The translations under genes were made by a program, and so were the position numbers. The notes under the pieces are model-generated. The model searched no databases. It was not told the DNA's origin and worked only from the letters and a program-made list of their open reading frames with translations. A stretch of DNA of 62,919 bases, filler included, from Bonamia ostreae (Eukaryota), in the NCBI GenBank assembly GCA_040357525.1. It is 33 parts of 33 records of this genome, joined end to end, with 100 filler letters (N's around TTAATTAATTAA, not from the genome) between each part and the next. Parts side by side here need not be neighbours in the genome. Positions count along the whole stretch, not along the records: positions 1 to 1,828 come from JBDODL010001291.1; positions 1,929 to 3,755 come from JBDODL010001292.1; positions 3,856 to 5,681 come from JBDODL010001293.1; positions 5,782 to 7,605 come from JBDODL010001294.1; positions 7,706 to 9,528 come from JBDODL010001295.1; positions 9,629 to 11,450 come from JBDODL010001296.1; positions 11,551 to 13,372 come from JBDODL010001297.1; positions 13,473 to 15,294 come from JBDODL010001298.1; 25 more parts are not named here. One strand, 5' to 3'. Below, one piece after another: positions 20 to 60,387 of this stretch. The first letter of the stretch is position 1. Each line of letters opens with the position of its first letter.

Positions 20-1415
20 AAAACTGGTGAAAACCGCTCCCGGAACGCACATCGTCGCAATGGACTGCGAGATGGTTTTGACGAACAACGGGTCCGAGCT
101 GGCTCGCTGCACTGTGGTGGATTTCGAGGGCAACGTGGTCTACGACGAGTTCTGCAAACCAGATGCGCCGATCGTCGACTATTGCACGGCGTTCAGCGGA
201 ATCGACAAGAAGATAATGGACAAAACATCGAAAAGACTGGGCAACGTCCAAAACGAACTCGCGAAAGTTCTGACACCGTTTCCTTTTAGAATTCAAGAGC
301 GACGATTATTTGCGGCCATTCTTTGGAGAACGACTTGTTGGCGCTTCGTTTGGTGCACGAGAAGGTCATAGACACGAGTCTTCTTTTCGCTCATCCAAAC
401 GGACCGCCTTGGAAACTCGCTTTGAGAGTTCTTGGTTTTTGCTCCTTCTAAGTTAACCGTCTTTTAAAGCTTCCAATTTCTTGTTTGTATAGCACAAAGA
501 CGGCGATCTCTTTAATTTCTTGTTTGTCGTGTTTGTATAAAATCTTGTAACTATATAAAATTTTAACAATAAATCTTGTTTAACACAATAAATCTTGTAA
601 CACAATAAAATCGTGTTTGTGTAAAATTTTTAACTTGCGAAGGATGGAAATTTTTAGGGATTCCAAATTTAATTTTGAGTGTAATTATGTGTTAGCTATC
701 TCAGTCATGACTTTTAGTGGATTCTTTGATAATAATTGACTACGATATTTAATTTGGCAATTCAATTTTCATTTTACGTTTAAATAAACAGCGAAAAAAT
801 ATTTGCGGCGAGATATACAACAAAACGAACTAGGACACGACAGTGTTGAAGACGCTCGGGCTGTCGTGGACTTAATCAAGCTCAAATTTGACAAGGGCTA
901 TAAATTTGGCAACAACCCAATCGATTTCGAGTCGATATTTTCTTTGGCCAACCGACATGGCCGCGATTGTAGTTTGGTTGCCGGTCCAATGGCTTGCAAA
1001 TTGGTATTTTAAATAAAGTCCTAAGTTCTCTAACAGCTTAAAGCAGTTATCTGTGTACGTTTGCGAAGACATTGAAAACGCGGTTACTTCGACCGAAAAG
1101 ATTCTAACGAAGAAAGAGGGTTTTTGCTGGGTTTCCATCGATAGCTTCGGCAAAAAAGACAACCGCCCAGCTTCCGAAATGGATGAAGCGATTGCTCGAA
1201 TTTATGAAGCCTGCAAGGAGCACACGTTGCTGATCGTTCTCTCGGGCGATTTAATGAACAGTGGTCTCAAAAAGTTTCTATTCTAGACCTAAAGAATGAG
1301 CAAAGCGCGCGCAGAATGGAAGTCGAACAACAGTTCGCAATGGGAAAAAGAAGAAACCTTCGAAAACGCTCTGAAAAGCGCGAAACAAGGCATTTTCCTC
1401 GCAACGATGAAATAG
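20..1415 (+). CDS. REXO1: DEDDh 3'-5' RNA exonuclease, REXO1/Rex1-like (5' partial, spliced)
   Basis: Motifs AMDCEMV, ICGHSLENDLLAL..HEKVIDTS and GHDSVEDARA come into one frame after removing GT-AG introns 267-289 (23 nt), 435-791, 1004-1025 (22 nt) and 1274-1294 (21 nt). Stop TAG at 1413-1415. Confidence 0.9.
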
Positions 1416-1828
1416 CCGCAATTTTTATAAATTGTTATTTACTCAATTATGTTCATTTCCAAGCGACGGAAGCTGAGTAATAATTATTTTAGTTGGAACA
1501 TGTCTTGAAGACATATCCAAACAATTCATTAGAATTTACAAGTATCATTTCTTTGCAGTTTTCTAATTTTTGAGTGCCGATCATATTGCTAAGAATTATC
1601 CAATCTGTTTATTCAACGATTATTTTTTGAGTTTTAATAAATTATCCATTATGGAAATAAATTATCCATTGTACTTTTAATACAACCTTTTTATATTCTC
1701 TAATTTGGCAATAAACAATTTTGGAAAATAAAATATTGAATTGAGTTGTTTCGAGTTTGCAAGAACTCTTGACGAATTAAAAACTACTTTTGAGTTAACC
1801 GCCCCTCAATGAAGGTGATTAAGTTGTC

Positions 1829-1928
1829 NNNNNNNNNNNNNNNNNNNNNNNNNNNNNNNNNNNNNNNNNNNNTTAATTAATTAANNNNNNNNNNNNNNNN
1901 NNNNNNNNNNNNNNNNNNNNNNNNNNNN
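1829..1928. other. Artificial scaffolding linker N44-TTAATTAATTAA-N44; first of 32 copies (others begin near 3756, 5682, 7606, 9529 ... 59136, 61030)
   Basis: Identical 100-nt linker about every 1.9 kb, with stops in all six frames. Intervening contigs shrink steadily (1828, 1827, 1826 ... about 1790 bp). Confidence 0.99.
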
Positions 1929-2280
1929 TTAAAATTTTGCTGAAAAAATTAAATATTCAGTTACATATTAAAATTAAAATATTTTCTAAATAATTTAAAT
2001 GCATTAAAAAATATAAGCCTTTGCTGCGTTCGACAGTGACAAATATTTCCTTTGGGTTAGTTAAATCGTTCCCGTTAAAAGAGCTTTTAAATGCTTTTTA
2101 AAACAATGTAAAGTTTTGGTTCCATCGAACAGTTTTAGTTTTGAGGCTGGGAATTGATTTTCTAGTGTGACGTTGGTTTTTCCCAAAAACGATTTCACAA
2201 TTGACGGGAATTTCGTTTTCCGAATACACTGTACCCTTTGAGGCAAGAATTTCCACTTCGTAGAAATCGGTTCTAGACAT
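1929..2280 (-). CDS. C2-domain-like protein, N-terminal part (3' partial)
   Basis: YEVEILASKG...VNCEIVFGKNQRHTRK...VRWNQNFTL resembles a C2 beta-sandwich (P.WN..F motif). A 22-nt GT-AG intron follows. Confidence 0.45.
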
Positions 2281-57100: not shown

Positions 57101-58253
57101 TCTTTTCTTTGTTGAAATTTGTTGTTTTCCGCGTTTTCTGTCGCCGTTTGCGTAAAAGCAAATGTAAATGTTCTGTTTTTTTTTTTAATTTTAGTTTTTG
57201 TGAAGAAACGACAAAAATAACAAATTTTAGTTTTTGTGAAGNNNNNNNNNNNNNNNNNNNNNNNNNNNNNNNNNNNNNNNNNNNNTTAATTAATTAANNN
57301 NNNNNNNNNNNNNNNNNNNNNNNNNNNNNNNNNNNNNNNNNCTGTTTATGCAAAGAATATACAAAATAAAATGTCTGCGGCTCTCAAAATACCTGTTTCG
57401 ATAACAAAAAGATTGCATTTTAAATGAATTGACGCATTTTGTAAGTTTTTCCCAAATTTAAAAACATTTCGATTTTATAAATTTTGTTCATTTTGAATAT
57501 TTTGTAATTTTATGTCATTTTTGTTCATTTTGAATATTTTCCAATTTTTACGTTATTTTTGTTCATTTTGAACATTTTTCAACTTTTATTTTGTTTTTGT
57601 TTGATTTTTATAGCTCAGACATTCAAATCAGGAGTTTAGATAAACCTGCATCTCCCGTCTTATTTATATTAATAATTCCATTATTTTTGCTCTATTTAAG
57701 ATAAGATGTAAAAATTCGTAATAAAATTTATATTTATCAGTTACACTCGATTTATTGACAATATCCAAAATATTATTTTTTGGTAAATTTCATATTTTTT
57801 ATTTTACTACTATTATTTACATTATTTATTTAGATAATTAATTGATTTAAATTTACATTGGTTTTTTATTAATTAATAGATTTACATGTTCGTCAACTTT
57901 TAATAAGATTTTTACAATTTGTGGCAATTAAAGAATTTTTTAATTTAATTACGTTATTGTTTTGCAATAAACCCAATATAAAGAATAAATTATAATAGTT
58001 CATTCTTTAATTTTCAATTTTAATAATTTTTAAACTATTTTTTGTAGATATTGAAAAAAGATCCAAGTTCTTAAGAGTCATATGATTACAAATGTCATAG
58101 TTTTCCTATGATTTTTCAATTGCTATAATTACCAATGTTTCTAATTTGCTACATAAAGAGTTTTCTTTGGAAAAGTTCAGGCCGAAACGAAGGATTTAAT
58201 AACCGTAAATTGGATTGTTAATTTTCTCCAAATCATCGAAAAATGAACACATT

Positions 58254-59090
58254 TTATTTACTGCGAACTAGTTGCACAGTTATCGAAATAACAGTGAAGA
58301 CAAAAATAACAGCTGCAAAACTTACGAACGGTATGAAATATTTTGATTTGATCACAAAATCTTTCGTATCCCTTAAAAACCGAACATAAGTCATAATAAG
58401 TGATCCGTTTCTGATATAGTTTAAAAATTTTTCTATCGAATTTCTTGTTTCTGTAGAAACCAAAATAGGGTCATGTGACTCGACTTTTGACATCATGTAG
58501 TTCTTATTCGTATTTTTTATTTTTTGTGCGGTTAATGTTAATCCGAATCCTCCAAGAATTGTTTTGGTAAGATAAACTGTCATTTTAAAGGCTAATGCAG
58601 TACCACGCGTTAAATGAAACAACTCGTAGTGAAAATCTGCCTCAGAAGTTGCAAAAATCAAAGCTAATCTTGCATCTGGAAATGCACTGCCAAGTATATC
58701 AGATAGCTCTCCTGGATTGTTACAACTAGATGTTAATATAAAACTCTGAATTGTTATTCGTAACTTCCGACTTTAAAATTTATTAAATTTATTTCAAAGT
58801 TTGATAATCTGCAAGATTATTTTTACATAAAACTGATTATCTTGTTAAAGGACATATCTAAAAACATCTTTATCCAAAAATACAAAAGGGCCTGGCAAAA
58901 TGACGACGCCAAAATTTTGCCTTCCAAATGAATTCGCTTCTACAACATGACTCATTATCGCAGCCCTTGTTTTTTCAATACGGTCTTGATGCAGACAATA
59001 AGTTACGATTTGTAGACTAATGGCTACCTCTAGTGTGTATGGCTTGACGCAATGAAGTAACAGAATTGTTATTGCCAGAAGTCCTTTCAT
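58254..59090 (-). CDS. Hypothetical type-I membrane or surface protein
   Basis: Signal peptide MKGLLAITILLLHCVKP and a C-terminal TM helix FIPFVSFAAVIFVFTVISITV. One intron near 58773-58852. Confidence 0.55.
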
Positions 59091-59289
59091 TAGTTTTTTA
59101 TTTTGTTTTTGTGTAAATTTTGTGTAAATTTTGATNNNNNNNNNNNNNNNNNNNNNNNNNNNNNNNNNNNNNNNNNNNNTTAATTAATTAANNNNNNNNN
59201 NNNNNNNNNNNNNNNNNNNNNNNNNNNNNNNNNNNTTTTAAATGAATTGATCATTACCAAAACGACAAAATTAAATTTCCTCGAAAAAG

Positions 59290-60387
59290 TACATATCAAG
59301 AACAGTCCAAAAACGATTTCCGGAAGAAACTAAAAAACTCGAAACAGAATTAGCTTCGTCTCAAGATTTAGCCACAGCTCTCCCTCTAAACGAACTCAAA
59401 TCTCTCTTCTCAAAACTCAAACGTGATTTCAAAGAAATCGAAAAAAATGCGGCAAACGTCGACATCTCAGCGGCAAACGACAATCTTCAAGAACGCGCCA
59501 CTGCTCTCGTCGCCCAAGTCTCCTCCGAATTTTCTCGTCTCGATAAACTAGAAATTAAAATGAGCGCTATTTTCGAAAAAGTGAAAAAGTATTTCGGAGC
59601 AACAACATTTGACGAAAGCAATTCAAATGAGCTTTTTGAGTTCTTCCAGATATTTTACGGCGAGTTCCGAGCGTCGTTGCCGGTAGAAAAGAAGAGAGAA
59701 GGAAAAATAAAGATATTGAAGAAGAAAGTGAAGAACATATTGAAGGGAGCGACTGAAAAAAAGAGTGAGAACAATGACGAGAAAAAAGAAAAAGGAGAAA
59801 AGAAAATAGTTAAAGTTGTGAGAAAAGTCAAAAAGTTTTTAGCGTTCGAACACAATTTTTGTTAATGACTTAATTTAGTTTTTTTGTTATTGACTTAATT
59901 TAGTTTTTTTGTTAATGACTTAATTTAGTTTTTTTGTTAATGACTTAATTTAGTTTTTTTGTTAATGGCGTAATTGGTTTATTACGTAATTGGTTTATTT
60001 TTAAACACGTTTAAAAATGTTTATAAAGGAAAAAACGTGTGAACAAGAAACCGAAAGGGCCTACAATGCAAGAAGTAATAAAAGAAGCAGCGGAAAAGTT
60101 GAAAAAATATAAATTTAAAATAGACGAAAAAATGTTAAAACGACAGAAGAAGATATCGCTAAAAGAGAAAAGGAAATTAAAGATTTCAAAAATGTCAAAA
60201 AGTCAGAAAACGATGGAGAACAATGGAACAATGTTTAAATAATACTCGATTTCAGAAAAATTTTTAAAGCAAATTTGGTCAATTGAAATAAAATTTAAAG
60301 TTACAAACAACTTTGAAACTTGAACAAAAGGGGTTTGAACCAGAAGAGCGAGAGAATTCAAAAGACTCTGAATCTGACTGGGAATAA
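59290..60387 (+). CDS. Formin: FH2 C-terminal part plus basic and acidic tail (5' partial)
   Basis: YISRTVQKRFPE...ND.LQER...MSAIFEKVKKYFG...ELFEFFQIFYGEFRA is an FH2-type end. Terminal exons join via 23-nt introns at 60233-60255 and 60278-60300. Confidence 0.75.
59857..59966. repeat. 25-nt tandem repeat, about 4 copies, in a formin intron
   Basis: GTTAATGACTTAATTTAGTTTTTTT at 59861, 59886, 59911 and 59936. Confidence 0.95.

Follow-up and report, generated by a model that had tools for sequence, protein, structure and literature searches.

Bonamia ostreae, a haplosporidian (Ascetosporea, Rhizaria), is an oyster parasite and a regulated pathogen of flat oysters. The stretch of its DNA analysed here, hereafter the window, is 62,919 nucleotides (nt) long and joins 33 separate pieces in order of decreasing length, from 1828 down to 1790 nt. 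It carries, among others, genes for a REXO1-like protein, DLAT, MAGOH, an NVL/Cdc48-type AAA ATPase, SF3B2, ELOF1 and PNKP and the genes MHBO_002928 and MHBO_002930, which are interrupted by GT-AG segments, most often about 20 nt long and beginning with GTTT, that are interpreted below as introns. Between the pieces stand spacers of the form N44-TTAATTAATTAA-N44, a fixed 12-mer between runs of N (1829-1928, 3756-3855 and so on); these cut the window into 33 and rule it out as one locus, and genes on either side of a spacer are therefore unlinked in the genome. Exons in the window match NCBI proteins of B. ostreae with 100% identity (five proteins, on pieces 1, 3, 21, 22 and 27), which rules out a dicyemid origin. 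The assembly of this species is given as 12.24 Mb with an N50 of 1417 bp and 33.3% G+C in the text of its genome paper (Hiltunen Thoren et al. 2024, PMC11069148).

The intron set (n=30; Table 1) has two sources. Twenty introns come from four public genes with five protein isoforms, the NCBI proteins having been mapped codon by codon onto the window; the public B. ostreae models were made with funannotate, that is, by ab initio predictors with training on transcriptomic reads. The other ten were pinned by homology, meaning collinearity with PDB chains, Pfam profiles or homologous proteins; they comprise seven segments that a sequence-only reading of this DNA had proposed as introns, together with MAGOH 8587-8641 and PNKP 50788-50809 and 50659-50690. 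Our own gene finders recovered at best 6/15 and 10/17 known introns and over-predicted, and their predictions were kept out of the counts. The sequence-only reading had put forward 14 introns, all of which have GT as 5' and AG as 3' terminus on the strand given; 11 of them stand at their exact coordinates, four through public gene models and seven through collinearity with homologues, while one (267-289) was misplaced and two, on a contig labelled 'formin', are unverified. That reading had also spoken of a genome-wide system: GT-AG micro-introns are indeed scattered over 9/33 independent contigs, and the term is fair only by accident, because the examples chosen happen to sit on independent contigs.

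Table 1. Introns and intron parts in the window, by position. The last column but one refers to the sequence-only reading.
Gene	Position	Strand	Length (nt)	Ends	Earlier reading	Basis
REXO1-like (MHBO_002908)	278-297	+	20	GTTTCC..CAAG		exact P0121 mapping; ungapped homologue P0122
REXO1-like	435-791	+	357	GTTTTT..ACAG		exact P0121 mapping
REXO1-like	1004-1025	+	22	GTATTT..TAAG	claimed	exact P0121 mapping
REXO1-like	1274-1294	+	21	GTTTCT..AAAG	claimed	exact P0121 mapping
DLAT (MHBO_002910)	4346-4373	-	28	GTTTGC..ACAG		exact P0001 mapping
DLAT	4506-4628	-	123	GTTTTT..TAAG		exact P0001 mapping
DLAT	4771-4801	-	31	GTTTTG..TTAG		exact P0001 mapping
DLAT	5262-5281	-	20	GTTTCA..TTAG	claimed	exact P0001 mapping
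DLAT	5407-5426	-	20	GTTTTC..TTAG	claimed	exact P0001 mapping
Longer intron, end	7706-7781	+		..ATAAAAG		last exon 7782 to about 8021
MAGOH	8297-8318	+	22	GTTATT..ACAG	claimed	exon 2 = human MAGOH 11-99
MAGOH	8587-8641	+	55	GTCGTT..AAAG	missed	Pfam Mago_nashi positions 95/97
MAGOH	8768-8788	+	21	GTTTTC..TAAG	claimed	homology
CPSF2, longer intron, start	9440-9528	+		GTTTAA..		acceptor past contig end
NVL/Cdc48-type AAA ATPase	13627-13646	+	20	GTAAAC..TCAG	claimed	chain 5vc7_A
SF3B2	19884-19902	-	19	GTTTTC..TTAG	claimed	human SF3B2 chain 5z56_2
MHBO_002928	39070-39106	+	37	GTTTTA..TCAG		exact P0274, P0275 mapping
MHBO_002928	39143-39202	+	60	GTTTAT..ATAG		exact protein mapping
MHBO_002928	39383-39403	+	21	GTTTAA..AAAG		3n, stop-free; public model only
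MHBO_002928	39508-39536	+	29	GTTGTT..AAAG		exact protein mapping
MHBO_002928	39580-39771	+	192	GTTTTT..AAAG		spliced in P0275, retained in P0274
MHBO_002928 isoform 2	39826-39850	+	25	GTTTGA..TAAG		exact protein mapping
MHBO_002930	40667-40726	-	60	GTTTTT..TTAG		3n, stop-free; public model only
MHBO_002930	40836-40859	-	24	GTTTTT..AAAG		3n, stop-free; public model only
MHBO_002930	40922-41465	-	544	GTTTTT..AAAG		tandem-repeat-filled; exact P0273 mapping
MHBO_002930	41555-41604	-	50	GTTCAA..TAAG		exact P0273 mapping
MHBO_002930	41739-41759	-	21	GTTATT..AAAG		exact P0273 mapping
ELOF1	46291-46310	-	20	GTCAAA..TTAG	claimed	Pfam Zn_ribbon_Elf1
PNKP	50107-50125	-	19	GTTTTG..TTAG	claimed	read through in public model
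PNKP	50537-50555	-	19	GTTTCC..TTAG	claimed	absent from public model
PNKP	50659-50690	-	32	GTTTCT..AAAG	missed	homologue alignments, frame, PNK3P order
PNKP	50788-50809	-	22	GTAAAA..AAAG	missed	homologue alignments, frame, PNK3P order
'Formin'	60233-60255	+	23	GTTTAA..TCAG	claimed	plausible by form only
'Formin'	60278-60300	+	23	GTCAAT..AAAG	claimed	form only; would leave 22-nt exon

Two of the public genes show how the reading frame fixes the introns. For the REXO1-like gene (MHBO_002908), the homologue P0122, 54% identical, aligns without a gap across 278-297 (LLDLLTP/STILLGHSLESD versus LAKVLTP/ATIICGHSLEND), and since both this homologue and the public model need the intron at that place, the 23-nt segment 267-289 proposed earlier is rejected. 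The other two segments named for this gene, 1004-1025 and 1274-1294, are introns of the public model, whose protein is 100% identical, and the same was found for 5262-5281 and 5407-5426 of DLAT (MHBO_002910, protein 100% identical), where the exon 4791-5261 on the minus strand matches the model with 100% identity. The junction at 5262-5281 immediately precedes the ETDKA stretch of the protein, which we take to be the lipoyl-lysine motif. The window also encodes the C-terminal part of a Cpn60/TCP-1 chaperonin (5802-6404, plus strand, profile positions 332-489 of 490), and the chaperonin and DLAT fit the aerobic mitochondrion reported for B. ostreae.

At PNKP, translated searches (tblastn) of four homologues and the order of the Pfam domains PNK3P and AAA_33 bear out the proposed introns 50107-50125 and 50537-50555. 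Across the latter the alignments of P0124 and P0129, read by eye, are ungapped; across the former the spliced frame gives VIDNTNP as in the homologues, with a loop-sized difference across the junction. Homologues and Pfam matches together describe a gene of at least five exons with phosphatase and kinase domains and introns of 22, 32, 19 and 19 nt. The public protein P0123 (151 residues, contig 49762-51557, minus strand) begins just past 50537-50555, and its C-terminal end is a read-through of 50107-50125 into a stop; it thus owes its truncation to two 19-nt introns that the model skipped or read through. A search of protein representatives returned the homologues and this unspliced public fragment, and no spliced PNKP model.

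MAGOH opens with a first exon of 12 codons from the ATG at 8259, ahead of the intron 8297-8318, and its third exon corresponds to positions 97-137 of 142 in the Mago_nashi profile, followed by a last exon of seven residues, IKPILAV, and the stop. Homology of exons 2 and 3 confirms 8297-8318 and 8768-8788 as introns, the support being moderate, as a search needs longer sequence than the terminal exons offer. Three single claims in other conserved genes hold as well. For 13627-13646 of the NVL-type gene, chain 5vc7_A is matched to residue 433 upstream and from residue 436 downstream, the two residues left unaligned, D of the split codon and L next to it downstream, being counted as 434 and 435. 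For 19884-19902 of SF3B2, the upstream exon reaches human residue 677 and the downstream alignment starts at 679, with the unaligned first residue as 678; the downstream exon alone gives a weak match (E = 1.1), yet there is no other hit and its position is as expected, and the protein as such is well conserved (E = 4.9e-71 versus human). For 46291-46310 of ELOF1, the upstream exon ends at position 41 of the profile and the third downstream residue is position 44.

Two of these loci have features of their own. The NVL-type gene likely contains further introns outside the set of 30, both on the plus strand: 13750-13807, of 58 or 55 nt, for which the in-frame donors GTTGTC and GTCTTT are indistinguishable, and 13905-13979, of 75 nt with donor GTATTC, the exon before it covering AAA_lid_3 profile positions 8-25. 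The two contigs at 19236-22969, which encode SF3B2 and, at 21320-22732 on the minus strand, a WH2-motif protein rich in proline, have about 45% G+C versus 24-35% elsewhere and carry long open frames on both strands of each.

The remaining public genes are MHBO_002928 and MHBO_002930. The former (38916-39966, plus strand) has two public isoforms of 179 and 229 residues that differ by retention of 39580-39771, and the existence of the two isoforms suggests transcript support behind the public models. In MHBO_002930 the 544-nt intron is filled by a minisatellite (40936-41455) with TTTTTGACCATTAAAATT units, which is also found on a second contig at 2960-3265; its presence on two contigs makes it a dispersed repeat family.

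Among the 30 introns the termini are uniform, with G at +1, T at +2 and a terminal AG in 30/30. For 20 of them GT-AG is imposed by the gene models, and the ten pinned by homology, 10/10 with these ends, are free of that. Beyond the dinucleotide the donor is rich in T, with T at +3 in 25/30 (p = 1e-7 versus intron composition) and at +4 in 22/30 (p = 3e-5 by the same measure), then at +5 in 17/30, at +6 in 14/30 and at +7 in 13/30, and with G at +5 in only 2/30. Sorted into classes, 25 donors begin with GTT, 21 with GTTT and 17 with GTTTY; three begin with GTR and none with GTAAGT. The proposal that donors are mostly GTTT(T/C) rather than GTAAGT is borne out by these counts, and neither does the sample show the extended donor GTRAGT, given the three GTR donors and the two with G at +5. 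No exon-side consensus was seen at the splice sites of the 30 introns, and none of their donors, inspected by eye, has the U12-type sequence [AG]TATCCTT.

The 3' side carries less. Position -3 holds A in 16 introns, T in nine, C in five and G in none, so that the acceptor amounts to a non-G followed by AG. By manual tally 23/30 introns end in AAAG (10), TTAG (8) or TAAG (5), with seven others, in agreement with the endings described in the sequence-only reading; its further description of the acceptor as A-rich did not hold up as a signal, because A at -3 (16/30, p = 0.18 versus composition) is at the level of composition. The lack of a pyrimidine tract appears to hold, with a pyrimidine fraction of 0.55 at -12 to -4 and a longest run before the AG of 2-9 nt. 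A is slightly more frequent at -8 (17/30) and at -7 (16/30), short of significance (p about 0.1-0.18), and no fixed branch-point motif was found among the 30 introns. An Rfam search gave no small nuclear RNA (snRNA) in the window at the gathering score or at E<=1. The same database gave a sub-threshold match to mir-297 at 49284-49350 (minus strand; 32.9 bits versus a gathering score of 90, E = 0.063), which was taken as chance.

Intron lengths cluster close to the lower end of their range: three introns of 19 nt, five of 20, four of 21, three of 22, one each of 24, 25, 28, 29, 31 and 32, and a tail of 37, 50, 55, 60, 60, 123, 192, 357 and 544 nt. Their median lies at 23 nt (28.5 nt in the public models alone), and by size class 17 introns are of 25 nt or less, 21 of 32 nt or less, five of 33-60 nt and four longer than 60 nt. 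The range of 19-32 nt, mostly 19-23, given by the sequence-only reading therefore fits the mode and leaves out the 9/30 introns of 37-544 nt; the GTTT donor is also present in 7/9 of the introns longer than 32 nt. G+C is 23% in the introns versus 39% in the 30 nt of exon next to them. Retention of the intron would add an in-frame stop in 20/30 cases, and in 27/30 it would cause either a stop or a shift of frame. The mapped genes have 3-6 introns each. The genome paper states a mean of 2 introns per messenger RNA (mRNA) and calls the introns canonical in its main text (PMC11069148).

Two kinds of chance calculation bear on these signals. At the ten homology-pinned junctions one to four placements give the same spliced sequence, and the chance of finding GT..AG among them is 0.002-0.008 each, if the borders are exact. 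An annotation-free count on both strands, with five permuted controls, asked how often segments of 18-24 nt join open reading frames (ORFs) of >=30 codons: 29/326 of the GTTT..AG segments did so versus 58/1710 in the permuted sequence (p = 3.5e-5). When donors are split into the 16 GTNN classes, the ORF-joining excess is largest for GTTT (11.0, p = 0.009 uncorrected), followed by GTAA (6.9, p = 0.017). A scan with splice-site weight matrices gave no clean separation.

The sequencing runs compared with 7706-9528 were all contigs; run X5 is RNA (mollusc metagenome), and run X4 is labelled 'RNA?', its kind being guessed. In a search of runs, sequence of the window occurred in only some DNA runs of one organism, in X4 from a second organism and in X5, a pattern that fits a parasite. 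An X4 contig of 2424 letters matches up to 9439, at the end of a first exon of CPSF2 (metallo-beta-lactamase family match), and then runs into sequence absent from the window. X4 and X5 contigs start matching at 7782 and share one upstream loose end, and X5 has a poly(A) run after 8021. These loose ends are absent from the window because it consists of 33 separate contigs. The only splicing that the RNA contigs show is at 7781/7782 and 9439/9440, in introns that are longer and extend past a contig end. In addition, the match of two short X4 contigs breaks off at 8318, the predicted acceptor in MAGOH, leaving two letters unmatched, which is a weak hint.

The label 'formin' attached to the contig with the segments 60233-60255 and 60278-60300 is not supported, as no FH2 match in Pfam at E<=1 and no PDB match at E<=10 was found. 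Both segments sit in a lysine-rich tail, and a composite protein query of eight exons returned 2/8 public B. ostreae proteins, none of them for this contig. On the same contig the stop codon that closes the long ORF is directly followed by 4.8 copies of a 25-nt unit (59856-59975); around this repeat an unreliable gene finder, and nothing else, proposes a 194-nt intron at 59835-60028 (donor GTTTTT). Elsewhere in the window, one contig, whose HEAT-repeat ORF is mTOR-like (9845-10618, minus strand; E = 1.2e-12 to Pfam mTOR_dom), has near-perfect tandem repeats at both ends (9629-9806, 57 nt x 3.1; 11196-11450, 64 nt x 4.0); the assembly probably broke at these terminal tandem repeats.

The segments are best understood as genuine spliceosomal GT-AG introns of B. 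ostreae nuclear genes, with a mode of 19-22 nt and a U-rich donor, a reading to which we give a probability of about 0.83. A number of points weigh against it. The sample is small (30 introns, ten genes, 9/33 contigs). Three of the 30 introns are a multiple of three long, hold no in-frame stop and are not needed for the reading frame, being given by the public model alone. No read joint across a micro-intron was found in the contigs on 7706-9528, where cover of MAGOH is patchy and X1/X2 DNA is near nil; a part that lacks cover says nothing either way. Counts of terminal dinucleotides show no enrichment of GT..AG as such in ORF-bridging segments; such ORF-bridging tests are without power, because for every true junction there are dozens of alternative placements that also leave the frame open. 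The p of 0.009 for the GTTT excess precedes correction for 16 classes. Lastly, gene predictors impose GT-AG and a learned donor, so that the termini and part of the donor bias are built into 20/30 introns, and GTT donors are found in 19/20 introns of the public models versus 6/10 of those known from homology only (p = 0.03).

This last difference is also an argument for supposing that the introns are real and that the GTTT consensus and the 20-nt mode are largely an artefact of the predictor's trained splice model and of the examples chosen in the sequence-only reading, the true donor being nearer to GTA or GTAA. The second-largest ORF-joining excess, that of GTAA..AG (6.9, p = 0.017), and a sample of only 30 introns speak in the same direction. 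The annotation-free excess of GTTT is larger, however, 11.0 versus 6.9; the GTA..AG class is not above its control; introns known from homology only begin with GTTT in 5/10 cases and with GTA in 2/10; the sole donor read from a run contig (X4, 'RNA?') is GTTTAA; and the predictors were trained on B. ostreae transcripts. We consider an artefact of this kind unlikely. GTTT is the commonest donor class, with a true share that may lie closer to 50-70% than to 80%.

Far less credible is the view that the segments are not introns at all and are assembly errors or frameshifting insertions in decaying genes. The assembly is highly fragmented (N50 1417 bp), 72-92% of the sequence in these parasites is non-coding according to the text of the genome paper (PMC11069148), and the RNA contigs show no micro-intron joint. 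Random insertions, on the other hand, would not all be GT..AG at one to four placements (0.002-0.008 each at ten junctions), nor share a GTTT start in 21/30 cases (p = 1e-7 for T at +3); the segments interrupt essential, conserved genes (SF3B2, MAGOH, the AAA ATPase, ELOF1), and X4 ('RNA?') and X5 contigs are spliced at sites with the same signals. Removal by something other than a spliceosome, be it DNA elimination of the ciliate type, an endonuclease and ligase as for transfer RNA or XBP1, or translational bypassing, has nothing specific in its favour beyond the strain that very short introns put on the canonical spacing of 5' site and branch point, and is scarcely credible given ends of GT..AG, unlike the TA..TA of the sequences that ciliates eliminate, a donor shared by the long introns (GTTT in 7/9), and the presence of the conserved spliceosome and exon-junction genes SF3B2 and MAGOH. 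Spliceosomal introns of 15-21 nt, moreover, are documented for mikrocytids, Stentor and nucleomorphs in the text of PMC10245619.

If the segments are spliceosomal introns, the 5' splice site would be recognised through the short U-rich sequence G-U-U-U-(U/C), and the 3' splice site would be minimal, a base other than G followed by A-G, with neither a pyrimidine tract nor a fixed branch motif. The branch point would probably be an A that lies about 7-10 nt from the 3' end and mostly follows pyrimidines, and splicing would follow the ordinary two-step route with conventional U2/SF3b. As far as protein conservation can tell, SF3B2 argues for conventional U2/SF3b recognition of the branch site, and conserved SF3B2 and MAGOH genes together would imply an otherwise ordinary U2 small nuclear ribonucleoprotein and exon-junction complex. 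Since retention leads to a stop or frameshift in 27/30 introns, unspliced RNA would be non-productive.

The sequence-only reading had proposed a remodelled spliceosome, in which U1/U6 pairing would be divergent and U2AF less needed; Entamoeba, with its U-rich donor and matching U1, would be a precedent for the idea. The canonical 5' end of U1 is ACUUAC, the complement of GUAAGU (bioRxiv 10.1101/2022.06.08.495308, in its text). Such a U1 pairs with a GUUUY donor only at G+1 and U+2, which implies either that U1 has changed or that other factors define the 5' site. The 5' site would probably be recognised by a U1 that has co-evolved with it, the situation known from Entamoeba, or else chiefly by U6, U5 and proteins. 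It can be speculated that B. ostreae, and perhaps haplosporidians at large, recognise 5' sites by a U1 whose 5' end has come to pair with GUUUY, or with no U1 pairing, and that the introns of 19-22 nt are a living intermediate on the way from ordinary rhizarian introns to the fixed 16-17-nt introns of mikrocytids; we regard this as a tentative and rather doubtful proposal.

Several known systems resemble the introns described here in part. The mikrocytids Mikrocytos mackini and Paramikrocytos canceri have introns of 16 or 17 nt (217 and 7 of 224) with a highly conserved sequence, and a spliceosome of 17-19 proteins for which only U2, U4 and U6 are given as found in the text of the report (Zarsky et al. 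2023, PMC10245619). Similarly to B. ostreae, they are Ascetosporea that live as intracellular parasites of marine invertebrates, with extremely short introns in housekeeping genes. Unlike theirs, the introns of B. ostreae have a minimum of 19 nt and a range of 19-544, are conserved only at +1 to +4 and at -2 to -1, and occur at high density (3-6 per mapped gene). Being neither uniform in length nor conserved in sequence, they fall outside the mikrocytid definition. The literature searched gave no text description of the mikrocytid intron consensus.

Entamoeba offers a comparable donor. Its GUUUGU donors, for which bioRxiv 10.1101/2022.06.08.495308 cites Davis et al. 2007 as the first report, account for 88-90% of introns and GUUUGN for 97-98%, and its U1 has ACAAAC instead of ACUUAC, as stated in the text of Roy and Bowser (bioRxiv 10.1101/2022.06.08.495308). 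The two parasites have in common an AT-rich genome and U at +3 (25/30) and +4 (22/30) in place of the usual purines. In Entamoeba, however, G+5 is kept and the motif is near-invariant, whereas in B. ostreae G+5 occurs in 2/30 and GTTT in 70%, and the U of the Entamoeba motif at +6 and +7 is matched by T in 14/30 and 13/30; Entamoeba is also intron-poor, in contrast to the 3-6 introns per mapped gene in B. ostreae. Nor are Entamoeba introns known to be of the 19-22 nt class.

Dicyemids and myxobolids have introns with medians of 22-27 nt and a 5' signal described as 'GTa' in the texts of Hadjez et al. 2026 (PMC13644364), Lu et al. 2019 (PMC6736024) and Zverkov et al. 2019 (PMC6543705). They too are parasites with reduced splice signals; as seems to be so in B. 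ostreae, a pyrimidine tract is absent, and weakly conserved A residues shortly before the AG are taken as branch point. They are animals with 'GTa', unlike B. ostreae, a rhizarian with GTTT. Tiny introns are also present in Paramecium. The text of PMC10245619 gives 18-21 nt for introns of the chlorarachniophyte nucleomorph and 15-16 nt for those of heterotrichs like the ciliate Stentor. The B. ostreae introns share with nucleomorph and ciliate introns their GT-AG spliceosomal form and a size near the physical minimum, and differ from the narrow lengths of the nucleomorph and heterotrich ones by a long tail and by repeat-filled long introns with the same donor. To our knowledge, no GTTT donor has been reported for nucleomorphs, heterotrichs or Paramecium.

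The introns are partly known already, many being in the public annotation and others missed. The literature searched states no intron length and no GTTT donor for B. ostreae or haplosporidians, and supplements could hold such data. As far as this literature goes, the combination of a 19-22 nt mode with GUUUY donors that lack G at +5 appears to be unreported. Given 3-6 introns per gene versus the published mean of 2, and the truncated P0123, intron density and protein completeness are probably underestimated in B. ostreae, whose only published genome is highly fragmented and would be helped by re-annotation with a very small minimum intron and a donor model aware of GTTT. With a mode of 19-22 nt, B. 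ostreae, a haplosporidian, falls in between rhizarians with ordinary introns and the mikrocytids with their introns of 16-17 nt. A donor with U+3 and U+4 and without G+5 also provides a cheap test of the co-evolution of U1 and splice site outside Entamoeba. If true, a U1 matched to GUUUY would be, after Entamoeba, a further independent case of co-evolution between snRNA and splice site, in a group whose mikrocytid relatives have no U1 among the snRNAs reported as found.

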